This document shows positions 46,073-61,330 of a stretch of 64,000 nt of DNA, piece after piece; the first letter of the stretch is position 1; every line of letters starts with the position of its first letter. The stretch is from Flavobacteriales bacterium. Lineage in GTDB: Bacteria; Bacteroidota; Bacteroidia; CAIKAF01. Both the position numbers and the translations under genes were made by a program. The notes beneath the pieces are model-generated. The model was not told where the DNA came from. It saw only the letters and a list, made by a program, of their open reading frames with translations, and did not search any database. Where the stretch lies: contig JAGYKD010000002.1 in NCBI GenBank assembly GCA_018401695.1, forward strand, positions 238,636 to 302,635, written 5' to 3'.

Positions 46073-46791
46073 CCCTTTGCCTGATGGTATGTACATCGGC
46101 CTCGGTCTCGGCTCAACAAGCCGAGCGCCCTTGGTATGAAGCACCCCCTTACCGCTTGTTGCGGGAAGGTAATGCCGCCCTCGAACAAGGAAATATACAA
46201 GAGGCTATGAAGGCTTATCAAGCCTACGGTGAACGTATGCCCAACGACCCCAGATGGCAATACAACCTCGGAAATGCGCTGTTTAAAAACGGACAAGCCG
46301 ATAGCGCAAGGCATTGGTACCAACAAGCAGCCCAAAACCTCAACGACCCCAACCATCAGTCCAAAGCTTGGCACAACCTGGGCAACAGTTATATGCAAGC
46401 AGAGGATTTCCCTAAAGCAGTAGAGGCCTACAAAAAATCCCTGCTTGCCAATCCTAAGGCAGAAAACACCCGCTACAATTTAAGCTATGCGTTGAAAAAA
46501 TTGCAACAGCAGCAACAACAGCAAGATCAGCAGCAACAACAGCAACAACAGCAACAAGAGCAGCAGCAAGAGCAGCAGCAAGAGCAGCAGCAAGAGCAGC
46601 AGCAAGAGCAGCAGCAAGAGCAAGAGCAGCAGCAAGAGCAACAAGAACGCAATCAGCAAAAAAATCAGGAGCTAACCAGAGAACAAGCCCAACGCTTACT
46701 CGACGCCTTAGATCGAGACGAAAAAGAACTGCAACAAAAGAAAATGGAATCCGGGGATGCCCCCCAAAAAAGAATAAAAAAGCCATGGTAA
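46048..46791 (+). CDS. batC: aerotolerance protein BatC (TPR repeats + Gln/Glu-rich tract)
   Basis: Signal peptide, TPRs, then a roughly 50-residue Q/E low-complexity stretch. Confidence 0.7.
   Translation: MDMVWKCLTLCLMVCTSASVSAQQAERPWYEAPPYRLLREGNAALEQGNIQEAMKAYQAYGERMPNDPRWQYNLGNALFKNGQADSARHWYQQAAQNLNDPNHQSKAWHNLGNSYMQAEDFPKAVEAYKKSLLANPKAENTRYNLSYALKKLQQQQQQQDQQQQQQQQQQEQQQEQQQEQQQEQQQEQQQEQEQQQEQQERNQQKNQELTREQAQRLLDALDRDEKELQQKKMESGDAPQKRIKKPW
46501..46650 (+). repeat. CAG/CAA trinucleotide-rich tract with perfect 12 bp repeat (CAGCAGCAAGAG) x5 inside batC
   Basis: Direct reading of 46561-46620. In-frame and encodes (QQQE)n. Confidence 0.9.
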
Positions 46792-49887: not shown

Positions 49888-51273
49888 ATGAAATGGCGCA
49901 TCTTCTGGTTATTGGCCGGCCCTTTGGCCGCTTGGCTCGTTTTCCTCGCCTGCCTGCCCATGGGAGCAACCCAAGCCAAAACCCTGGGCTTGGGCGCATG
50001 GATGGTGCTTTGGTGGATAAGCCAACCCGTAAACCTGGCGGTAACTGCCCTGCTTCCCCTGGTCTTTTTTCCCTTGCTCAACCTCATGCCCGTTCGGCAA
50101 ACCGCCGCCTATTACGGCCACGACATCGTTTTTTTGTTTCTCGGTGGCTTTTTGATTGGTCTGGCCATGGAAAAACACCGCCTTCACGAGCGCATTGCCT
50201 TGCTTATTTTGCTCAAAACCGGTGGGCGCCCCATCAAAGTGCTTTTGGGCTTTATGTTGGCCACGGGTTTCCTAAGCATGTGGATCAGCAATACCGCCAC
50301 CACCCTTATGATGCTCCCCATGGCCACTTCCGTGCTCCCCGTGTTCAACAACGCCACTTTTGGTCGACGACTTCTGTTGGCCATTGCTTACAGCAGCAGC
50401 TTGGGGGGCATGGCCACCCTCATTGGCACGCCCCCCAATGTGGTTTTACGTGGACAACTTCAGGCCGCCGGATTGGGCGAGCTTTCCTTTTTTGCCTGGC
50501 TTGGCCTGGCCCTGCCCATAACCCTAGTCCTTGGAGCCCTTTTGTATATGCTCTTGGGCTATGGCTTAAAACACATGCAGGGCTCAGCCATCGACCAAAT
50601 CCGGCAACGCAAACATGCCTTAGGCAAACCCGGGCCGGAAGAAAAACGTGTAGCCCTTATCTTTGCCGCCACCGCTGCGGCTTGGATATTCAGGCCCCTA
50701 TTGGAGCAGCTCAGCGGATTGCCCTTAAACGACACCGGCATTGCCATGGCGGGTGGACTGTTGATGTTTATGGTGCCCTCCACCAAGGCCGGCAAAGCCC
50801 TGTTGGATTGGGACGACACCCGAAAAATGGCCTGGGGCATAATTCTCCTCTTTGGCGGTGGACTCAGCTTGGCAGCGGCCTTAGAGCAAGCCGGAATCAT
50901 ACAAAGCTTGGGCATGGCCGCAGCCGATTGGGGCAGCGGCGGACTCTTTGCGCTCATATTGGGACTTACGGCCCTGGCGCTGTTCCTCACCGAAATCATG
51001 AGCAACGTAGCCCTCGTGTCCATCCTCTTGCCTGTCGTCTTGGAGTTGGCCAAAAGCCTGGACATAAACCCCTTGCAATTGGCCATACCCGTCACCCTGG
51101 CCGCCAGTTGCGCCTTTATGTTGCCCATGGCCACCCCGCCGAACGCCCTTGTATTTGCCGGAGGACAACTCAAAGTAAGCCACATGAGCCGCTACGGCAT
51201 TTGGATGAACCTGGCTTCCGTCTTAGTCATCAGCCTTGCCGCCTGGCAATTCCTGCCCCTTTGGTTAAACTGA
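49888..51273 (+). CDS. DASS/SLC13-family anion:sodium symporter
   Basis: 461 aa, polytopic, two-fold repeated architecture. Confidence 0.65.
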   Translation: MKWRIFWLLAGPLAAWLVFLACLPMGATQAKTLGLGAWMVLWWISQPVNLAVTALLPLVFFPLLNLMPVRQTAAYYGHDIVFLFLGGFLIGLAMEKHRLHERIALLILLKTGGRPIKVLLGFMLATGFLSMWISNTATTLMMLPMATSVLPVFNNATFGRRLLLAIAYSSSLGGMATLIGTPPNVVLRGQLQAAGLGELSFFAWLGLALPITLVLGALLYMLLGYGLKHMQGSAIDQIRQRKHALGKPGPEEKRVALIFAATAAAWIFRPLLEQLSGLPLNDTGIAMAGGLLMFMVPSTKAGKALLDWDDTRKMAWGIILLFGGGLSLAAALEQAGIIQSLGMAAADWGSGGLFALILGLTALALFLTEIMSNVALVSILLPVVLELAKSLDINPLQLAIPVTLAASCAFMLPMATPPNALVFAGGQLKVSHMSRYGIWMNLASVLVISLAAWQFLPLWLN

Positions 51274-51394
51274 GTCTACCCTTTAAAAAGCTGCCCGACC
51301 CATAAAAATGTACGATGGGTTATTTGGGCGCCTAATCCGTCTCCGGCCATTAGCTGCCTTGTGGGCTAGCTACGCCGCTAAGCGTAGGCAAGGA

Positions 51395-51535
51395 GCTTCC
51401 TCTGGTCGCTCTTGCCTCCGCAGCGGCTGAGCAGCCCACATCGTCAGGCTAATTGGCCTGCGCCGGGGCGCGTTAAGCTCCGTGTGTATTTTTTTTGAAT
51501 GATGGCCCACAGTTGAAACCGTGGGCGGTAGTGCG
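51395..51535 (+). repeat. ~140 bp direct repeat, copy 1 (…GGTCGCTCTTGCC…CGTCAGGCTAATTGGCCTGCGCCGGGGCGCGTTAAGCTCCGTGTG…GTTGAAACCGTGGGC)
   Basis: About 85% identical to 51985-52123. Confidence 0.8.
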
Positions 51536-51595
51536 GGTGAAATCATGGGATGCGGTTGAAACCGTGGGCTGTGGTGTGGCCATTTTTAAAGGGAA

Positions 51596-51699: not shown

Positions 51700-51985
51700 C
51701 TGGCGCAGTTTAAACCGTGGGCTATGGTTTAACCATTGATAATTTCGCCGTTAAATAAACACCTGGGGATTCTATTCTTTCGAGAATTTTAAACCGTTAA
51801 AACGGTTGGCCGGACACGGCATTTCATATAGCCCACGGTTTAAACCGTGGGCTATGGTTTAACCATTGATAATTTCGCCGTTAAATAAACACCTAGGGAT
51901 TCTATTCTTTCGAGAATTTTAAACCGTTAAAACGGTTGGTCCGGACTCGGCATTTCATATAGCCCACGGTTTAAACCGTGGGCTT
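51700..51985 (+). repeat. tandem repeat, ~130 bp unit x2.2, each unit starting with perfect palindrome GCCCACGGTTTAAACCGTGGGC
   Basis: Units at about 51709-51838 and 51839-51969 differ by roughly three substitutions and one indel. A third partial unit follows. Confidence 0.85.
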
Positions 51986-52123
51986 CCTGTGGTCGCTCTT
52001 GGCCGGGCGGCTGCTGAGCACTCTATTTCGTCAGGCTAATTGGCCTGCGCCGGGGCGCGTTACGCTCCGTGTGGATTTTTTTTGAATGATGGCCCACGGT
52101 TGAAACCGTGGGCTATGATTTCA
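51985..52123 (+). repeat. ~140 bp direct repeat, copy 2
   Basis: Matches 51395-51535. Confidence 0.8.
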
Positions 52124-52150
52124 ACCGTGGGTTAAACATCGGTCAACAAG

Positions 52151-52303
52151 AATGCAACGCTTCATTTGCTGAGGCATTGCTATTCGACGCAATTGCTTGA
52201 GGCGGATGTCGATTTGCGGGTCATACAGGAGTTGCTTGGGCATAAGAGAAGATAGACAACAGAGATTTGCACACATGTTAGCAACCGGCTGCTTCAACTG
52301 GTT
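52151..52303 (+). pseudogene. tyrosine recombinase (integrase) C-terminal remnant
   Basis: Translates to …[50 protein letters not shown]. The canonical R-HxxR…LLGH…Y block has a premature stop and Cys in place of the catalytic Tyr. No upstream ORF. Confidence 0.7.
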
Positions 52304-52465
52304 GGTTCACCTTTCAATGACTTGTGAAAACTACTTATATTAGCAAAGGGTAATCGAATGAGGTAAACCATCACTTAGCCTACCATTGAGGGTGGATAAA
52401 TGAGGTTCAACCTCATTTATAAAGGAGTTGGGGCACATGCTAAAATGAACTAAGAACAAAACGAC

Positions 52466-52828
52466 ATGCTTGAATTTATATTAGGATTAACATCGGACAT
52501 TATTTCAAATTCGACTTCACTATCAAAAAAAGACAAGGACACTGTCCATAATGAAGTAACGTATGCATTGAACCAGACACGGACACACATCAGAAACACC
52601 AGACAGGGGAATACAGATCAACCATCTTCTCATTTATCCAATGTTTGGCAAAGAACAGGCAGGCGACTTAGACAAATTGGGCATACCGAAGTCCAAGGTC
52701 TTGCGGACACCATTGAGCAAAAAAGCAAATACTGGTCAGACCCTACTGACTATGATTTACAGAACTTAGACCAGTATGAAATGCGACTAACCCAAGTTGA
52801 AAGTAAATTGAATGAACTCTGCTCATGA
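52466..52828 (+). CDS. hypothetical protein (120 aa)
   Basis: ORF with ATGA coupling to the next gene. No recognisable motifs. Confidence 0.4.
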   Translation: MLEFILGLTSDIISNSTSLSKKDKDTVHNEVTYALNQTRTHIRNTRQGNTDQPSSHLSNVWQRTGRRLRQIGHTEVQGLADTIEQKSKYWSDPTDYDLQNLDQYEMRLTQVESKLNELCS

Positions 52829-53649
52829 AAAGGATTATTGCTACAATATCGTTTATGTACCTTGTTTCCATACCGACAATTGCCCAAAGCGACACAGTTA
52901 CTGTTCAGAAACTGGATAAAATTGAAAAGACGTTAAATGAAATTGCTCAACAACTTACCAATCAAAAAAGTGACTCATTAATTGTCTCCGTAGAGCACTT
53001 TGAGAAGTTGACAAATAGACTTCAAAAAAATGATAGCATCTGGCCTGACATTCTTCCTTCGTTGATTGCAATTTTCGTTGTATTGATATCCACTGGCGGA
53101 GCAATCTTCATTGGAGTTAGACAGATTAGAACTCAAACGACAAATGCGGAAGAGCAAATTAGAAGCCAAGAAGCGCAAGCACAAGATAACCTTCAGGTTG
53201 CTCGAGAACAAATTCAAGAGACATCGAGAATGACCTTGGCACAAGTAAGGGCAAACAATATTTCACAAGCACGAATTAACTGGATACAGGATTTAAGAAA
53301 TGAACTGAGTCAGTTTAATGGAGAAGTCGCAATAATTAACTTTTATCTTCATGATGTGGTGGAGTTGACAAAAGAGGGAAATAAGAAAAAAGCAGAAGAA
53401 TTATACAATCAACAAGTTGAGAGGATAAAAACCGCAAGACAATTAGCATTCAAAATCAAACTTTTTCTGAACAAAGGCGAAACAGACCATAAGAAACTTG
53501 AAGTTTTAATTAACGACTACTACACTTCCGCTCTTGAAACCTTTTCAAAAGTGAAGTCCGACTTTAATAAAGTAAGCAATGACATTCTGGATATTTCAAG
53601 AAAAATACTTAAAGACGCATGGGAACAGGCAAAAAATGAAGGAACATAA
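52825..53649 (+). CDS. hypothetical membrane-anchored coiled-coil protein (274 aa)
   Basis: N-terminal signal-like segment, one internal TM helix (LPSLIAIFVVLISTGGAIFIGV) and long heptad-like Q/E/K-rich stretches. Confidence 0.45.
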   Translation: MKRIIATISFMYLVSIPTIAQSDTVTVQKLDKIEKTLNEIAQQLTNQKSDSLIVSVEHFEKLTNRLQKNDSIWPDILPSLIAIFVVLISTGGAIFIGVRQIRTQTTNAEEQIRSQEAQAQDNLQVAREQIQETSRMTLAQVRANNISQARINWIQDLRNELSQFNGEVAIINFYLHDVVELTKEGNKKKAEELYNQQVERIKTARQLAFKIKLFLNKGETDHKKLEVLINDYYTSALETFSKVKSDFNKVSNDILDISRKILKDAWEQAKNEGT

Positions 53650-53894
53650 AGAACAAAAAGCACGATGCCCCAACAGCGCATATAGCTTATGGCGGGTGAC
53701 GGGATAAATTCAAGGTTTTCGGCACGTAGCAAAGTTTGTCATTGGGGACAGTTAAGTGCTCTAAAAACCGCCACAAGCCATATGCGCAAAACGTTAGCGT
53801 TCATTAGTGTGACGAGTTAACAGCGAAATTATACTTTTGACGGAGCGGTTTCCGAAAGGCCAAACGAGTAGTAATAATTAAAAAACAAAAAAAT

Positions 53895-54383
53895 ATGACA
53901 AAGAACAAGTCAATACCCATTTTGCTCCTCACAGCAGGAGTTCTTTGGGCGGGCCTCACACAAGCTCAGGAATCTGCCAATGCCTCCGGTGGTGATGCTA
54001 CAGGAAGCGGAGGTACTGTTGCTTACAGCGTTGGACAAGTGCTTTACACCTCCAATACAGGAAGCGGAGGAACTGTTGACCAAGGCGTGCAACATGCCTA
54101 CGAAATTTTCACGGTTGGTATAAAGAAAACAGAACTTAACATTTCGCTCACCGTATTTCCGAACCCAACAACAGAAAATTTAACCTTGCAAATAAGCGAT
54201 TACACCAACGAAAAGTTGTCGTATCAGTTATTTGATATGCAGGGAAAACAACTAAGCAAAGGGCAAATAGTAGCACAGCAAACACAAATAAACATTAATG
54301 GTCTGCCCTCCGCTACTTACTTCATTCATGTTGTAAACCAAGAAGACAAAAAAGTTCAATCATTCAAAATCATCAAAAACTAA
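53895..54383 (+). CDS. small secreted protein with T9SS C-terminal sorting domain
   Basis: Signal peptide. C-terminal …LTVFPNPTTENLTLQI…YFIHVVNQEDKKVQSFKIIKN. Confidence 0.6.
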   Translation: MTKNKSIPILLLTAGVLWAGLTQAQESANASGGDATGSGGTVAYSVGQVLYTSNTGSGGTVDQGVQHAYEIFTVGIKKTELNISLTVFPNPTTENLTLQISDYTNEKLSYQLFDMQGKQLSKGQIVAQQTQININGLPSATYFIHVVNQEDKKVQSFKIIKN

Positions 54384-54389
54384 ATAATC

Positions 54390-55274
54390 ATGAAAAGGAT
54401 AATTTCAATATGTGCAGCATTACTAATGACAGCAAGCGTGTTTGCCCAAGCACCCGAGAAAATAAGCTATCAAGCAGTTGTGCGTGACGGAAGTAATACT
54501 TTAGTTACGTCCTCCGCAGTAGGTATGCAAATAAGCATTTTACAAGGTTCATCAAGTGGAACGGCAGTGTACGTAGAAACGCAAACACCTACTTCTAATG
54601 CCAATGGTTTGGTAAGCATTGAAATTGGAGCAGGAACAATTGTAAGCGGGGGCTTTACCGCTATTGACTGGGCAAATGGACCGTATTTTATTAAAACAGA
54701 AACCGATCCGACAGGAGGGACAAATTACACCATTACAGGTATAAGCCAACTTTTAAGTGTGCCTTATGCCTTACATGCGAAAACGGCAGAAACAGTGTCA
54801 GGAGGAAAGGATTTTTATTTAGGACAAGATACGCTTGGTGGTATTGTATTTTATATTTATTTGGATGCGAATGGAGTACAACGTGGACTTATTTTAAATA
54901 AAAACGAAAGTACGGCACAATGGCAAGGCACCGGCACAACAACCAATGCTACACGCAGTTGGGATGGTGCTTACAATACAGGGTTAATGGCAAATAGCCC
55001 TGCTGCTAATTATGTGAATAGTTTAACAGATGGTGGATTTACAGACTGGTATTTACCTTCAGTTGACGAGTTAAGTATTTTATGGAACAACCGCTTTCAC
55101 GCTAATAATGCCCTAAATGCTGGAGGCTATACATTATTGTCAAGCGGCGCTTCCTATTGGAGTAGTACAGAGGGTAGTGCGGCGATCGCATTCCGCTTCG
55201 CCTTCAACGACGGTTACGCACTTAACACCAATAAGATTAATATTCATAGCGTGCGTGCCGTTCGGGCATTTTAA
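54390..55274 (+). CDS. secreted DUF1566 (Lcl C-terminal-like) domain protein
   Basis: Signal peptide and a …TDWYLPSVDELSILWNN… motif typical of DUF1566. Confidence 0.5.
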   Translation: MKRIISICAALLMTASVFAQAPEKISYQAVVRDGSNTLVTSSAVGMQISILQGSSSGTAVYVETQTPTSNANGLVSIEIGAGTIVSGGFTAIDWANGPYFIKTETDPTGGTNYTITGISQLLSVPYALHAKTAETVSGGKDFYLGQDTLGGIVFYIYLDANGVQRGLILNKNESTAQWQGTGTTTNATRSWDGAYNTGLMANSPAANYVNSLTDGGFTDWYLPSVDELSILWNNRFHANNALNAGGYTLLSSGASYWSSTEGSAAIAFRFAFNDGYALNTNKINIHSVRAVRAF

Positions 55275-55626
55275 CCATTTATCAATTTAATACCCTGAAG
55301 CGGTAGATTTTTGAAAATTAATGGCTCTGTATTACGAATTACCAGTTTTTAAGCTCGTATTGATTTTTGGTTATACCAAAGATTTTCCGCCAGAGTATAA
55401 ACATACGCTTGGGCAAGACAATAAATGAGACAACATACAACTAGTAAGGATTATATATATAGCCAATACATCGAACGCAAATAACAAACGCACCGCAAAC
55501 ATTTAGCCGATTAGCAGAAAAGCCCTGCCAAAATGCCTGAATGACCTTTTGTCTTTGTAAGCATCCGACCAACCCCATATTCCCCACCTCAAAATCCCCC
55601 CACAGCTTTGGGCAAAACAAAAAATT

Positions 55627-55842
55627 ATGTCCAAAAGCAATCAAAAACGTGAAGCCATGTTAGCTCTGATAGCGGAGTGGCGCCAAAACGGAGAAACCTA
55701 GGTACATTTTACTACCAAAAATGAAATCTCTTTCGCTAAATTTCAAAACTGGGTGCGCAAAAGCAAGGCTACCGCTGCACCGGAGGGTTCTTTGGAATTT
55801 CCGCTGCCAAGTGGATGTTCCGAAGATACTGCCCCCTGTTAA
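55627..55842 (+). pseudogene. transposase OrfA-like HTH protein remnant with in-frame amber stop
   Basis: MSKSNQKREAMLALIAEWRQNGET*VHFTTKNEISFAKFQNWVRKSK… The TAG at 55699-55701 interrupts a frame resembling IS3/IS66 accessory HTH proteins (F..W.RK). Confidence 0.3.
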
Positions 55843-56184
55843 GGCCATCTTGAACCAGGTGTGTCCTTTTGATTTGGCCTACAGGGCTTTGTTAACTTTT
55901 TAACGGCTTGCTATAAACCAATCAAAAGTGGTATTTTAGACTGGGAAATGGGGTAAGAACGGGGTTATTAGACGAACTGACGTTAGCAGCAACCCCAAAA
56001 AACAGATAATAAAAAATCGCGCAATGGCAATTTTCACACCACGTCGCCTAAAAATCAGATTAAGAAAAGACGAGGCCTTTACCTATATCGCGAGACTTCA
56101 CCCGAAGTTTTCTGCGTTCCAAGTTTAAAAACAGTTGAAGGAGTTGAGTTACTCCCAAGTACATTTTGAGACAGATGGATCGGT

Positions 56185-57111
56185 ATGAACAAAGGTGAAA
56201 TAGAAATATATAAAAGTGAAACCGGCACTGAGGTACAAGTCAAACTGGAAAAAGAAACGCTATGGCTTACCCAGAGACAAATGGCTGAGCTGTTCGAAAA
56301 AGATGCAGACACCATTGGGCTGCACCTCAAAAACATATACAGTGTTAAAGAGCTAGAGGAAAATACAACTACCGAGGATTACTCGGTAGTTCGGCCCGAA
56401 GGGAAAAGAATGGTTCGAAGAACCATCAAACACTATAACCTGGATGCCATTATATCAATAGGGTATCGAGTAAATTCCAAAAGAGGTACTCAATTCCGCA
56501 TCTGGGCTACCCAACGCTTAAAAGATTATCTGGTGCAGGGCTACGCAATCAATGAAAAACGATTGCAGCAAAAAGAGATGGAGGTGCAGCATTTGAAAAC
56601 AGGCATTCACATTTTAGGCAGAGCTATTGAGGAGAAAGCTGGAGAACAAGGGCATGAATGGCTGGTACACTACGCTAAAGGACTTGAGCTTCTAGATGAC
56701 TACGATCATGAAAATCTGGATAAACTCGGCAAGAGCAAGCAAGCAGCGGTTTATCCTGCCAAAGAAGAATACCACAAACTGATCCATCAAATGAAGATCG
56801 ATTTTGATTCAGCCCTGTTTGGGGTTGAAAAAGACCAAAGCTTTGATAGTGCCATAGCCCAAATAGCCCAAGGATTTGGCCATGAAGACATCTATCCTAC
56901 CTTAGAAGAAAAAGCGGCTATGCTGCTCTATCTTATCACCAAAAATCATGCTTTTGCCGATGGCAACAAACGCATTGCCGCAGCCTGTTTTCTTTTATTT
57001 TTAGACCGAAACCACTTACTGACGAATACCCGTAATGACCAAATTATTAGCCATGAAGCCTTGGCTAGCCTAACGCTATTTGTGGCAAGCAGTAGGCCTG
57101 AAGAAATGTAG
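56185..57111 (+). CDS. RhuM-family protein with Fic/Doc motif (HxFxDGNKR)
   Basis: The N-terminus (IEIYKSETGTEVQVKLEKETLWLTQRQMAELF) is the RhuM signature. C-terminal HAFADGNKRIAA is the Doc/Fic catalytic motif. Confidence 0.75.
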   Translation: MNKGEIEIYKSETGTEVQVKLEKETLWLTQRQMAELFEKDADTIGLHLKNIYSVKELEENTTTEDYSVVRPEGKRMVRRTIKHYNLDAIISIGYRVNSKRGTQFRIWATQRLKDYLVQGYAINEKRLQQKEMEVQHLKTGIHILGRAIEEKAGEQGHEWLVHYAKGLELLDDYDHENLDKLGKSKQAAVYPAKEEYHKLIHQMKIDFDSALFGVEKDQSFDSAIAQIAQGFGHEDIYPTLEEKAAMLLYLITKNHAFADGNKRIAAACFLLFLDRNHLLTNTRNDQIISHEALASLTLFVASSRPEEM

Positions 57112-57152
57112 GCTGTAAAAGGATTAATTATTAGTGTATTAAATAGAAATCA

Positions 57153-57257
57153 ATGAGCAACGAATCAAGCATTGTTTCAAAAGTTTGGTGTTTCGCAAGC
57201 GTACTCCGCGACGATGTGCACTCCTCTTTCTTCGTGGCCGGTATGTATTCCTTGTGA
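57153..57257 (+). pseudogene. N-terminal stub of an HsdM-type (type I R-M) methyltransferase
   Basis: MSNESSIVSKVWCFASVLRDDVHSSFFVAGMYSL* matches the conserved HsdM N-terminal helix (…KLW.FCN.LRDDGV…). It is truncated after 34 aa. Confidence 0.4.
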
Positions 57258-57500
57258 GTTGCTCTCCGGCAGAGCACACTTCCACTTCAATACTGACACT
57301 GCCAAGGTCTCAACTATTTTTTATATTTTCAACATGTCTAGTTTAGGGGAAGCCCACAAGAACAATGTTGGTAGAATCACCATATTTATTAACTATGCAC
57401 CAAACCAGTCTTAATGTTTTGTAACCCATGGAAAAACCAAAAGTAAACGAACTCGATAAAGCATATAAAAGATGCCGAAAAATTATTAAATTTTGAGGGT

Positions 57501-57830
57501 ATGAGTGAGATCAAAAATATTGTAGAAAAGCTGATTGCATTTAGAGATGAAAGAGATTGGGCTCAGTTTCATAATCCCAAAGATTTGGCCATTGCTTTAA
57601 ATATTGAGGCAGGAGAACTGCTTGAAGCATTTCTTTGGAAAGGCCCAGAAGATGCGGATATTGAAAAAGTAAAAGAAGAATTAGCCGATGTGTTTGCCTA
57701 CGCTTTTTTGATTGCCGATAAATATAAGTTTGATGTTGTCGAAATTGTTACAACAAAAATTAAAGAAAATGGGGAGAAATATCCTGTGAGTAAAGCTAAG
57801 GGATCTGCGAAGAAATATAATGAATTATGA
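57501..57830 (+). CDS. MazG-like nucleotide pyrophosphohydrolase (small all-alpha NTP-PPase)
   Basis: 109 aa. EAGELLEAFLWK and EELADVFAYAFLIA motifs. ATGA overlap with the downstream gene. Confidence 0.7.
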   Translation: MSEIKNIVEKLIAFRDERDWAQFHNPKDLAIALNIEAGELLEAFLWKGPEDADIEKVKEELADVFAYAFLIADKYKFDVVEIVTTKIKENGEKYPVSKAKGSAKKYNEL

Positions 57831-60031
57831 ATCCCATAGGCGAAATTGTTATTGACTTAAATCGATACCCTTTTTCAAAAAACGCACTTGCCGAAATTTC
57901 AGAAAATAAATGGGTTAAAACTCAATGGCCCTTGGTGTATCTAATAAAAAACGACAAAACCAAAGTGGCGTATGTTGGAGAGACGACCAATGCGTTTAAT
58001 AGAATTAAAAACCATTTTGCTAACGAAGACCGTTTGGTTCTAGATACCATTACATTAATCGGATCCGATCGTTTTAACAAGTCTGCTACCCTTGATATCG
58101 AGTCTCAACTCATTCAATATTTGTCGGCAGAAAACACCTATAAACTTCAAAATGGAAATGGTGGACTAACCCACCACAATTACTACGAAAAGCCTTTCTA
58201 TCGAGATATTTTCAAAGAGATATGGGCACGACTAAAGAGTGAAAAATTAGTTAGCAAGTCGCTAGAGGAAATCGAAAATTCGGATTTGTTTAAATACTCT
58301 CCCTACAAAGCGCTTTCCGATGATCAAAGAGCCTCAGTAATGAAGATTATTCATACGCTAAACAACCAGAACCATCCGAGTATTTTTGTGGAAGGTAGTG
58401 CGGGAACTGGTAAGACCATTCTTGCAACTTACTTGATGAAGCTTTTACATTCACCTCTGCCAGCTGCTGACGAGATAGAAGATTTAGAAGGATACCGTTT
58501 GGAGGAGTATCGATTGCTTGAATTATTTCGCCAAAAGTTTAAAGATGCAACTATTGGTTTGGTTGTGCCTATGACCTCCTTACGCAAAAGTCTTAAAACT
58601 GTATTTGGTGCAATTGGTGGGCTTAAAAGGAGTATGGTTATTGGTCCTTCGGATGCGGTTGAAAAAGAATACGACATCCTAATTGTTGATGAAGCTCATC
58701 GGTTAGCTCAACGTAAAAATATTCCGAATTATGGGTCTTTTGATGCCATAAACCGCTCCTTGGGATTAGGAATTGAAGGCACTCAGCTTGATTGGATAAT
58801 CCGAAGTAGTAAGCACCAGATATTTTTTTACGATGAAGCGCAATCGATTAAGCCCTCCGATATCCCTAAGGAAAGGTTTAACGAATTAAAACGCCAATCA
58901 GCAAAACCCATCAAGCTTACTTCTCAAATGCGGGTTTCGGCGGGTTCCGACTATATCAATTTTGTAGACCGCTTGTTGAAATGTCAACCTCTCGATGATT
59001 TGACCATTCCCGAGAATTATGACTTTAGGTTGTTTACATCTTTCAAAGAATTTCATAATGAGATTATTATTAAAGAAAATGAACTGGGATTGAGTCGCCT
59101 CATTGCCGGGTATTCGTGGCCTTGGATTTCAAAAAGCGATAAAAGCTTGTATGACATTGAAATCGAAGGGACGAAATTGCAATGGAACAAGGTGAACGTA
59201 GATTGGATTAACTCCGCCGATCCGAAAGTGGAAGTAGGTTGTATTCATACTACGCAAGGGTATGACTTAAACTATGCCGGGATTATCTTTGGCAAAGAAA
59301 TAACCTACAATAAAAAACTGAATCGAATAGAAATTATCAGAAAAAACTACCACGATAGAAATGGAAGCGCAGGGATTAATGATGATGAGCGTTTGAAAGA
59401 ATATGTTGTCAATATTTATAAGACCATTATGTATCGGGGGATTAAAGGAACTTTGGTTTATGCTTGCAATCCGGAATTAAGGGACTATTTGGCTGCTTAT
59501 ATTAAACATGAAACATGGGAAAGAGGCGCAACCTCTGTAGAAAAAGAATCATTTTTTAGAGTCTTGGATTTCGAAAAGGTGCTGCCTTACCAAAACGCAA
59601 TTCCCTTGGTTGATATACAAGCCGCTGCAGGAAATTTTAGCGAAAACCAACAGCATTCGGAATTAACATGGGTTGAAATTCCCGATGGATTAAGGGTGAG
59701 TGAAGGCGATTTTATTTGCCAAGTTATTGGCGAATCCATGAATAAACGCATTCCAAATGGATCTTTTTGCCTATTCAAACCATATTCGGGTGGATCACGA
59801 AATGGTAAAATCGTATTAGTTGAGTCAACTAGTATACAAGATTCAGAATTTGGTTCAGGATATACGGTAAAAGAATACCACAGCATAAAAAAAAATTCTG
59901 ATAGCGGTTGGAGTCATGAGTCAATTGTATTAAAACCGCTATCGACTGATGGAGAATACTCAAATATTGTTTTACAAAAAGATGAATTGGTGGATTTTAG
60001 GGTTGTCGGAGTATTCGAGAGAGTAATCTAA
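57827..60031 (+). CDS. GIY-YIG nuclease-like / Schlafen-like (DUF2075) P-loop ATPase with C-terminal LexA-type S24 autopeptidase domain
   Basis: N-terminal VYLIKN…AYVGETTN…R..NH (GIY-YIG). Walker A at GSAGTGKT and a DEAH box at ILIVDEAHRL. C-terminal PLVDIQAAAGNF (Ala-Gly site), GESM (Ser) and TVKEY (Lys) in LexA/UmuD spacing. Confidence 0.7.
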   Translation: MNPIGEIVIDLNRYPFSKNALAEISENKWVKTQWPLVYLIKNDKTKVAYVGETTNAFNRIKNHFANEDRLVLDTITLIGSDRFNKSATLDIESQLIQYLSAENTYKLQNGNGGLTHHNYYEKPFYRDIFKEIWARLKSEKLVSKSLEEIENSDLFKYSPYKALSDDQRASVMKIIHTLNNQNHPSIFVEGSAGTGKTILATYLMKLLHSPLPAADEIEDLEGYRLEEYRLLELFRQKFKDATIGLVVPMTSLRKSLKTVFGAIGGLKRSMVIGPSDAVEKEYDILIVDEAHRLAQRKNIPNYGSFDAINRSLGLGIEGTQLDWIIRSSKHQIFFYDEAQSIKPSDIPKERFNELKRQSAKPIKLTSQMRVSAGSDYINFVDRLLKCQPLDDLTIPENYDFRLFTSFKEFHNEIIIKENELGLSRLIAGYSWPWISKSDKSLYDIEIEGTKLQWNKVNVDWINSADPKVEVGCIHTTQGYDLNYAGIIFGKEITYNKKLNRIEIIRKNYHDRNGSAGINDDERLKEYVVNIYKTIMYRGIKGTLVYACNPELRDYLAAYIKHETWERGATSVEKESFFRVLDFEKVLPYQNAIPLVDIQAAAGNFSENQQHSELTWVEIPDGLRVSEGDFICQVIGESMNKRIPNGSFCLFKPYSGGSRNGKIVLVESTSIQDSEFGSGYTVKEYHSIKKNSDSGWSHESIVLKPLSTDGEYSNIVLQKDELVDFRVVGVFERVI

Positions 60032-60216
60032 TTGCTATTTAATAGCCAAAAACCTTTTGTTCTAACCCAATGGCCTTTAGTGGCCAGCCAAAACGGGACA
60101 ACAAACACCAAGTGCATAAATTTGAGACAAATTCAAGCACTAAAGAACTTTGAATTTGGGCTTTAACCTGAGAGAATGGCTAAGTCCATTCCATTACTCG
60201 GCCAACAAACCCTAGG

Positions 60217-60365
60217 CCACGGTTGAAACCGTGGGCTATGTGAAATGCCGAGGCAGGGCCAACCGTTTTAACGGTTTAAAAATCTTGAAAAAAGGAATCC
60301 CCGCGGTTTTGTTTAATTGCCAAATCATCCATGGTTAAACCATAGCCCCAGGTTTCAACGGCGTT
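60217..60365 (-). repeat. inverted copy of the 130 bp repeat unit plus CCACGGTTGAAACCGTGGG palindrome
   Basis: The reverse complement aligns with 51709-51838 over most of its length. Additional CCACGG/CCGTGG palindromes lie at 60395-60480. Confidence 0.75.
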
Positions 60366-60739
60366 TATGAAATGGGAAATGGATGCATCCATTGCATTAG
60401 CACGGTAAATAGCCGTGGGCTGCGATACATACTTTCTATTCCTAGGTAAACTGCCCACAACCCAGGGTTGTGCCCGTGGGATTAATTGGCAAAGAAATGC
60501 TGGGGGCCCAGAAGGCGGCTTTGCCATGTTTTGCGGGCTGCGGCATAGGCCATAATAAATTTTAATTTGCTTTGGGAGGGACCTCCGTCAAAAATAAGGT
60601 GCTTATGAAATGCGGAGTTTGAAGAGGAAAGGTGTGTCATACGCTAGGTTTAATTGCTGTATCCGTGAAGGAGCTGTTGAGACTCGCTACTAAACCATAA
60701 CGCAGGGACAGGGACCTTAGTATATAGGCGCTTAAAAAA

Positions 60740-61330
60740 TCAGGAGGCCAGTTCCAACTGATGTTTCTCCATGAGCTTACGCAGATTGATTAAGGCATAG
60801 CGCATGCGGCCTAAGGCGGTATTGATGCTTACCTGGGTTTGTTCGGCAATTTCATTGAAGCTCATGTCGGCATAATGACGCATGTATACCACTTCTTTTT
60901 GTTCGGTGGGCAATTGCTCAATGAGGCGGTGTAAAGCGTCCTGGGTTTGTTGCTGAATGAGCTTATCTTCTGCGTTTTTTTCGGGCATTTTGAGTAAATC
61001 AAACACATTAAATTCTTCGTCTTCGGTTTCGAAGCGAGGCATGCGCTTGTTTTTACGGAAATGGTCGATGATGAGGTTGTGGGCGATGCGCATAACCCAG
61101 GGAAGGAATTTGCCTTCATCGGTATATTTGCCGGATTGAAGGGTTTGGATTACCCGAATAAAGCAGTCTTGGAAGATGTCTTCGGAGGTGTCGTGGTCTT
61201 TCACCATCATCATGATGTAGGAATAGACCTTGGTGCGGTGCCTGTGGAGTAATACGTTAAAGGCTTCGGATTGACCGTTCTGATAGGCTTTAACCAGAGC
61301 TTTGTCTGATAATTCGCTGTGACTGTGCAT
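60740..61330 (-). CDS. RNA polymerase sigma-70 factor, ECF subfamily
   Basis: Region 2 (…VYSYIMMMV…DIFQDCFIRV) and region 4 (YMRHYADMSFNEIAEQTQVSINTALGRMRYA). Confidence 0.75.
   Translation of the reverse strand: MHSHSELSDKALVKAYQNGQSEAFNVLLHRHRTKVYSYIMMMVKDHDTSEDIFQDCFIRVIQTLQSGKYTDEGKFLPWVMRIAHNLIIDHFRKNKRMPRFETEDEEFNVFDLLKMPEKNAEDKLIQQQTQDALHRLIEQLPTEQKEVVYMRHYADMSFNEIAEQTQVSINTALGRMRYALINLRKLMEKHQLELAS

Follow-up and report, generated by a model that had tools for sequence, protein, structure and literature searches.

The borders of an 8-kb low-GC island in the genome of a Flavobacteriales bacterium (GenBank assembly GCA_018401695.1) carry homologous repeats in opposite orientations, which raises the question of whether these repeats are the ends of the island itself or belong to a repeat family with a history of its own. 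The stretch analysed, termed the window here, comprises 64,000 nucleotides of contig JAGYKD010000002.1 (positions 238,636 to 302,635), and all coordinates given below are window coordinates. The repeats fall into a known category, that of hairpin repeats with affinity to IS200/IS605 and repetitive extragenic palindrome (REP) elements. They are probably non-autonomous elements, similar to REPs and palindrome-associated transposable elements (PATEs) and built around the type of hairpin used by the IS200/IS605 Y1 (HUH) transposases, and the island probably landed in or beside a cluster of them that already existed.

Homology of the repeats at the two island borders

The left-hand side of the island carries two tandem repeat units and the right-hand side a single inverted copy. 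When the tandem units were compared with the window using blastn, positions 51704-51850 paired with 60363-60217 in inverted orientation at 83.1% identity over 148 nt (E 4e-38), and the second tandem unit matched the right-hand inverted copy at 83.0% over 147 nt. The two left-hand units are 98% identical to each other, a three-way MAFFT alignment of both units with the right-hand copy gave a mean column identity of 87%, and a repeat search of the window returned inverted arms at 51888-51984 and 60214-60310 with 82% identity. The first-pass annotation of this DNA, made from the sequence alone, had proposed an inverted copy of the 130-bp tandem unit at 60236-60365. Alignment of the left array with the reverse complement of 60215-60370 bears this out (83% over 147–148 nt, E ∼ 1e-38), and the homology of the copies in the window is far above chance.

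A hairpin, CCACGGTTGAAACCGTGGG, sits at 52094-52112 and again at 60217-60235. The same annotation had correctly described these two hairpins as identical, but had placed the left one a single nucleotide too far along, at 52095-52113. Together with the nucleotides that follow, the hairpin forms part of an exact 24-nt direct repeat ending GCTATG, CCACGGTTGAAACCGTGGGCTATG, at 52094-52117 and 60217-60240 (24/24), and a third copy with the same loop polarity (TTGAAA loop) is located at 51507-51526. Allowing up to two mismatches, the 18-mer CCACGGTTKAAACCGTGG gave 10 strand-matches in the window against 0.01 expected. The half-site AACCGTGGGCTAT gave 16 matches against 1.6 expected, with 14 in the two clusters and 2 elsewhere, and the inner box AACCGTTWWAACGGTT has only three sites in the window (51792, 51922 and 60261), all inside the units. 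Within the 64-kb window the repeat family therefore amounts to two clusters only, at 51.4-52.1 kb and 60.2-60.5 kb, over which about nine hairpins or half-hairpins are spread; blastn found no further copies of the 130-bp unit in the window beyond them. Folded as single-stranded DNA, the second unit with its two bounding hairpins gave −41.4 kcal/mol (z = −7.8). The right-hand copy folds weakly (−27.4 kcal/mol, z = −1.9), because its distal hairpin is degraded.

The hairpin family and its association with Y1 transposase genes

The motif that defines the family is the palindrome CATAGC-CCACGGTTKAAACCGTGG-GCTATG. When one genome per species was scanned with CCACGGTTKAAACCGTGG, at least 118 blocks of 8 kb were obtained, from which 142 hairpin copies were analysed, and the counts that follow refer to these listed matches. 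By our own estimate some 17–35 matches to CCACGGTTKAAACCGTGG would arise by chance in 596 Gb. In 92 of the 142 copies listed the match continues past the searched pattern to TAGC and/or GCTA. About three-quarters of the matches listed come from Bacteroidota, the rest mainly from Verrucomicrobiota, Acidobacteriota and Ignavibacteria, and this phylum-wide spread is mostly extragenic: 21 of the 142 copies (15%) lie inside open reading frames (ORFs) of at least 150 aa, compared with 1749 of 2360 random positions (74%). Of the gene pairs that flank the listed copies, 32 are convergent, 50 tandem and 11 divergent, and the hairpin family favours gene 3′ ends. The stem also covaries. Across 21 aligned variants, picked by eye as hairpins, changes on both sides were observed in seven of eight pairs and 98% of cells were paired; none of 500 shuffles reached the observed values, and no slid register came close.

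Clustering of the ORFs from these blocks identified a single protein family common to many of them, a protein of about 143 aa present in 14 of the blocks listed, and hmmsearch of the blocks found no members beyond these 14. The protein is Y1_Tnp, ‘Transposase IS200 like’ (PF01797, E 4e-27), and its motifs DH[IV]H, WQ and YIKNQKEHH match TnpA_Y1 subclass 1.2, apparently a domesticated, low-copy protein of Bacteroidota. This subclass has been described as low-copy, largely limited to Bacteroidetes/Cyanobacteria and, as a rule, devoid of end hairpins (Quentin et al. 2018, PMC6006769). The family hairpin, exact or variant, is located ∼ 50–150 bp from the Y1 gene in 13 of the 14 listed blocks; hairpins flank the gene on both sides in five (L017, L022, L049, L060 and L088), and compensatory hairpin variants adjoin Y1 genes in L019, L037 and L038. 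No protein family common to the Verrucomicrobiota/Acidobacteriota copies emerged from ORF clustering of the blocks listed.

Tandem hairpin arrays were observed in two metagenome-assembled genomes, from Saprospiraceae and Bacteroidales (L034, 4122-4475, period 66–69 nt; L060, 575-827, period 48–63 nt), the latter directly upstream of the Y1 gene. Their identification as clustered regularly interspaced short palindromic repeats (CRISPR) was rejected because conservation extends to the sequences that separate the hairpins.

The hairpin is part of a larger module of ∼ 70 nt, which comprises the AACCGTTWWAACGGTT box, a spacer of ∼ 22 nt and the hairpin, often followed by an ATGG-N5-CCAT box. When the window unit was compared with all loci by blastn, some 65–75 nt containing box, spacer and hairpin matched about 25 loci at 73–86% identity. 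The remaining ∼ 60 nt of the 130-bp unit had no match among these loci, and the unit is therefore made up of a widespread module and a lineage-specific linker. The strict box was found within 70 nt of 23 of the 142 hairpins listed as against 1 of 2141 background positions, and the ATGG box within 70 nt of 15 of the 142 as against 5 of 2127. A metagenome scan with the inner sequence TTAAACCGTTAAAACGGTTGG returned five loci. In two of these, L121 (with two instances) and L122, the box, a gap of ∼ 20 nt and the hairpin are positioned directly upstream of the Y1 start codon (MPHSFNKIW...), and the box-and-hairpin module is present in L119 and L123 as well. Among the genome loci, L031, L049, L060 and L064 have the module directly upstream of the Y1 start codon, and in many cases an AATGG-N-CCATT box lies beyond the hairpin. 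The gene in the Y1 loci follows the box, at the place where the window unit has its linker, and the unit thus resembles such an element minus its gene. The module of box, hairpin and ATGG box could be an unrecognised DNA partner of TnpA_Y1 subclass 1.2, a tentative proposal for which the balance is tipped slightly to the negative side.

The same 18-mer is found in 62 phage contigs, in a fixed context. In L145 and L150 the hairpin lies ∼ 140 nt upstream of a Y1 tnpA gene, which is followed by a large ORF read as tnpB; in L191, L143 and L013 it adjoins TnpB, and in L142 and L151 it is upstream of an IscB-like protein (RRXRR+HNH). The tnpA/tnpB/iscB assignments were confirmed with Pfam except for the large ORF of L145, which had no Pfam match. 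Past this ORF, L145 carries a second hairpin in the same orientation with compensatory changes (CCACGATTTCAATCGTGG), and the pair has, as judged from sequence, the left-end/right-end geometry of IS200/IS605. Conserved sequence in the phage elements stops directly after TTAC, the known target of IS608. These insertion sequence contexts, together with the apparent geometry of L145, would place the hairpin in the class that Y1 transposases recognise.

Relationship to known repeat systems

PATEs are miniatures of IS200/IS605 that are moved in trans by TnpA, and gene-less elements of this type have been described for Geobacillus (PMC10055086). The window repeats are similar in being short, gene-less and hairpin-bounded, and the unit hairpins match both those of full Y1-encoding elements (L145, L150) and those of the 14 subclass 1.2 loci. 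A difference is that the partner Y1 of the window family is a subclass 1.2 protein; this subclass is low-copy and is not known to act as an insertion sequence. The left and right ends of the window units are indistinguishable, since the loop of the unit hairpin (TTTAAA) is symmetric.

There are equally likenesses to the REPs and bacterial interspersed mosaic elements (BIMEs) of Proteobacteria with their REP-associated tyrosine transposases (RAYTs): extragenic palindromes that favour gene 3′ ends, clusters of alternating orientation with motifs conserved in the linkers, and one small HUH Y1 gene that has palindromes on its flanks. Unlike a REP, however, the family hairpin has no GTAG or CGTC tag at its foot, the tag by which REPs are defined (PMC3733652), and is flanked instead by TAGC/GCTA. 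Its associated protein is of class 1 (IS200-like, subclass 1.2), not a class 2 RAYT. The modules that flank the Y1 gene in L038, L049 and L060 run in the same direction, whereas RAYT genes are flanked by inverted REPs, and the copy number per genome of the hairpin family looks low, where REPs number tens to hundreds.

A third comparison is with Acido-Lenti-1 (RF01687), which is filed as a small RNA of unknown function and is sometimes found near group II introns (Weinberg et al. 2010, PMC2864571). Verrucomicrobiota/Acidobacteriota copies of the identical CCACGGTTGAAACCGTGG hairpin score 37–59 bits against RF01687, above its threshold, and the window copies share with it the first hairpin and GGCUA. 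This similarity suggests a different explanation, in which the hairpins act as RNA, either as Acido-Lenti-1-type small RNAs or as 3′-end stabilisers or terminators of convergent transcripts, and are conserved for that role. The preference of the family for gene 3′ ends agrees with such a role, and the covariation of the stem fits RNA as well as single-stranded DNA. However, RF01687 requires two hairpins joined by GGCUA and the window copies have no second hairpin. Because they contain only the first hairpin and GGCUA, they score 24.7, 24.3, 23.7 and 17.9 bits (the last being the right-hand copy), well short of the 37 bits required for gathering. No function is known for RF01687 itself, there is no U-run after the hairpin, and the palindrome is symmetric, giving the same reading on both strands. 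The tight link with Y1 and with tnpA/tnpB/iscB points to a role at the level of DNA, and a function as RNA is considered improbable. In two Verrucomicrobiia blocks, inverted Acido-Lenti-1 pairs ∼ 100 nt apart, resembling a REPIN doublet, adjoin a tRNA gene (L075, 676-1002; L036, 2094-2414).

An identity as integron attC sites, or as a cluster of attC sites lacking an integron integrase (CALIN), was rejected: the unit ends GTTTAAAC misfit GTTRRRY, no ORFs lie between the units and there is no intI gene. The recombinase remnant at the left border of the island, described below, shows C-terminal similarity of a generic kind only.

Under the explanation favoured here, a Y1 transposase whose gene lies at another place in the genome would have mobilised the modules in trans, in the form of single-stranded DNA, and the module clusters would have grown by tandem duplication and recombination. 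In this genome the result would have been a BIME-like cluster in the intergenic region where the 3′ ends of a transporter gene and a sigma-factor gene converge. The low-GC 8-kb island, with its integrase stump, would then have inserted into or beside this pre-existing cluster, an order of events that would leave family members in both orientations on both sides of the island. Recombination between the repeats may also have played some role in truncating the integrase. The first-pass annotation had suggested independent insertions of miniature inverted-repeat transposable elements (MITEs) at both ends. Its MITE-like part agrees well with a dispersed, extragenic, Y1-linked hairpin and module, but independent insertion is less economical: a pre-existing cluster calls for one event, rather than two exactly at the island borders, and a convergent 3′ spacer is the preferred habitat of the family.

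Several observations weigh against this explanation. No Y1 gene was found in the 64-kb window by tblastn. The 14 Y1 loci with their hairpins are at odds with the description of subclass 1.2 as generally lacking end hairpins (PMC6006769). The whole 130-bp unit was not found outside the window, metagenomes included, where only the ∼ 70-nt module was recovered, and the selection by eye of the covariation set favours pairing. Both clusters abut the only island of the window, which could mean a causal link between repeats and island. Finally, no island-less relative that would bear on the order of cluster and island was found: the contigs of the nearest relatives (87% and 95% in flanking proteins) measure only 3.1 kb and 0.9 kb, and the next relatives (∼ 69%) do not share the gene order.

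The island and the repeat clusters at its borders

The clusters lie between two convergent host genes, which encode an SLC13 transporter (49888-51273, + strand) and an extracytoplasmic function (ECF) sigma factor (60740-61330, − strand). The island extends from 52.1 to 60.2 kb with a GC content of 0.38–0.42, compared with about 0.5 in its flanks, and is the sole clear low-GC stretch of the window; as the first-pass annotation had recognised, inverted homologous repeats frame it, one cluster on each side. Searches of the whole window for tRNA/tmRNA genes and with Rfam at gathering threshold gave no matches, and the island is therefore not located at a recognised RNA gene.

The first cluster contains a 132-nt direct repeat, D1, whose two copies (51395-51526 and 51982-52113) are 89% identical. 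In the first copy (+ strand), a terminator-like hairpin and its T-run (51464-51497) precede a family hairpin that has a TTGAAA loop and one mismatch (51505-51526). After it comes a degenerate hairpin copy, GATGCGGTTGAAACCGTGGGCTGTGG (51541-51579, + strand), which belongs to repeat families D2/D3 and includes a half-site match at 51560-51572. The two tandem units of 130/131 bp occupy 51708-51984 and are assigned to the − strand, according to the orientation of the module relative to the right-hand copy. They are bounded by the palindrome ATAGCCCACGGTTTAAACCGTGGGCTAT, present in full at ∼ 51828-51855 and 51959-51984 and as a half at 51708-51725, and contain the inner boxes AACCGTTAAAACGGTT (51792-51807 and 51922-51937) and the sequence ATGGTTTAACCAT (51724-51736 and 51854-51866). 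The second copy of the terminator-like segment (51982-52134, + strand) is the final repeat ahead of the island, with an intact hairpin, GCCCACGGTTGAAACCGTGGGC, at 52092-52113 and a half hairpin, TTTCAACCGTGGGTTA, at 52119-52134.

At the other border, the right-hand unit (60215-60365, + strand) is inverted relative to the left array. It comprises an intact hairpin (60217-60234, then GCTATG to 60240), the box AACCGTTTTAACGGTT (60261-60276), the sequence ATGGTTAAACCAT (60331-60343) and a decayed distal hairpin, AGCCCCAGGTTTCAACGGCG (60344-60363). The two further palindromes that had been noticed downstream are present. One, CACGGTAAATAGCCGTG at 60401-60417 (+ strand), is followed by GGCT to 60421 and is a loop variant of the family hairpin, since the family's GGGCT comes next; CCGTGGGCTGCGAT at 60413-60426 groups with repeat family D5. 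The other consists of CACAACCCAGGGTTGTG then CCCGTGGG (60456-60480, + strand, read from the sequence).

The GC-rich segment 51318-51498 (+ strand), 3′ of the transporter gene, has a predicted RNA fold of −89.7 kcal/mol (z = −5.1) and terminates in the terminator-like hairpin and U-run; a second copy of its 3′-terminal 110 nt lies at 51982-52091. The segment had no Rfam match, and could be a structured 3′ untranslated region or an unannotated small RNA that served as integration target.

Six-frame translation identified the remnant of a tyrosine recombinase at 52139-52324 (+ strand), which retains the C-terminal ∼ 60 codons with an internal stop and begins 5 nt past the last left-hand repeat. 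In tblastn searches of the window with three recombinases this was the sole match (best E 2e-10), and the N-terminal part of the recombinase is absent anywhere in the 64-kb window. Database relatives of the remnant carry PF00589 and are themselves short fragments. The true left edge of the island is at ∼ 52135-52139, at the start of this stump.

This position of the edge bears on the suggestion, made in the first-pass annotation, that the inverted 130-bp units are former terminal repeats of the island, as would be the case for a transposon-like or Y1-mobilised composite with an 8-kb cargo. The units do bracket the island in inverted orientation and occur nowhere else in the window, and the border hairpins have the same strand orientation, as in the left and right ends of IS200/IS605. 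However, the left copies lie outside the integrase remnant, on a side made up of a tandem array and a duplicated terminator segment with no defined end. The right copy is decayed, having lost its distal hairpin, and its identity with the left copies is only 83%. Hairpin and module are found in many genomes without the island, and no transposase gene was detected within the island by tblastn or Pfam. Single-strand ‘peel and paste’ transposition falls off steeply in longer elements, so that a cargo of 8 kb is unlikely. The suggestion is thus not supported, and an origin of the units as ends of the island is regarded as very improbable.

A second possibility is that a tyrosine-recombinase island used the hairpin that closes the terminator-like segment as its attachment site (attB), with attL at 52094-52117 and attR at 60217-60240; the 587-bp segment between the D1 copies would then have remained from a previous tandem integration into this site, and the hairpin could still belong to the Y1 family. 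The exact 24-nt direct repeat has the same TTGAAA loop polarity at both borders and a third copy at 51507-51526, the integrase remnant starts 5 nt past the left repeat block, the island is compositionally foreign, and the 89% identity of the D1 copies is what replacement of the target 3′ end by an element would lead one to expect. In its border direct repeats, the integrase remnant by one border and its foreign composition the locus resembles known tyrosine-recombinase islands. It differs from them in that the integrase is a stump rather than an intact gene and the border repeat comes from a dispersed family, and any two sites within clusters of a repeat family would be expected to share direct repeats. 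Moreover, only ∼ 60 integrase codons are left, and the missing N-terminal part would fall where the repeats now are. Beyond the window, remnant-like tyrosine recombinases were found in 3 of at least 118 hairpin loci, as against Y1 genes in 14; in L116, one of these three that was examined, the recombinase is not beside the hairpin, and a related truncated integrase in L132 has no adjacent hairpin. An attachment-site function for the hairpin is accordingly judged unlikely, if worth keeping in mind. A direct match of 11/12 between TCGGTCAACAA (52137-52147) and TCGGCCAACAA (60198-60208), seen by eye, was taken as chance because its left copy lies within integrase codons that are conserved in L132.

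Exact look-ups with the proteins of the island and its flanks yielded nothing but short-read contigs from the same strain (Logan, SRR14300309), which end at 51280, ∼ 52394 and 60096/60125, close to the repeats. Two of them overlap by exactly 30 nt (60096-60125) in a sequence that is not a family repeat, which suggests a branch in the assembly graph, possibly reflecting strain variation at the right island border.

The cargo of the island (52466-60031), delimited from ORFs, Pfam matches and the GC profile, has all its genes on the + strand. According to Pfam it encodes two unknowns, a protein sorted by the type IX secretion system (T9SS), an Lcl_C-domain protein, a RhuM+Fic protein, a MazG-like protein and a protein of 734 aa that combines GIY-YIG, a Schlafen-group-3 helicase (DUF2075-type) and peptidase S24. 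At 57501-60031 the gene for the MazG-like pyrophosphohydrolase overlaps that for the 734-aa protein, with the RhuM+Fic gene ahead of both, and from their sequences these genes look like a defence or abortive-infection set.

A plasmid collection gave no match to the repeat region, and only short matches to the island, all but one within annotated genes. The exception, an intergenic element of ∼ 150 nt in the island (53655-53805) with a long-range stem GCGCATATAGCTTATGGCGG ... CCGCCACAAGCCATATGCGC, has a 74% match to the Persicobacter psychrovividus plasmid pPP2, where it is present in 10 places that are likewise intergenic. It had no Rfam match at gathering threshold, and looks like another multi-copy miniature element or a small RNA. 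Outside the island, Tandem Repeats Finder reported a CAG/CAA-rich tandem repeat at 46503-46641 (period 12/18/24, ∼ 6–9 copies), which is probably a Gln-rich coding repeat.

Overall, the inverted repeats at the island borders are best treated as background members of a repeat family; they are weak evidence on the movement of the island and should not serve as its boundaries. Family hairpins may nevertheless act as landing sites for integrase-borne defence islands. The partnership with subclass 1.2, the three-palindrome module and the first hairpin held in common with Acido-Lenti-1 were not found described. The analysis thereby links a Bacteroidota-wide hairpin, the subclass 1.2 Y1 proteins and the function-less Acido-Lenti-1, three subjects kept apart in the sources consulted. 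If the proposed partnership is correct, hairpin, subclass 1.2 and Acido-Lenti-1 would all acquire a testable function at the level of DNA, and Acido-Lenti-1 would be a REP-like DNA element and not a small RNA. Bacteroidota would then hold a system resembling REP/RAYT but descended from Y1 proteins of class 1 instead of class 2, which would be the second case, independent of the first, in which a domesticated single-strand transposase has genomic repeats of its own.

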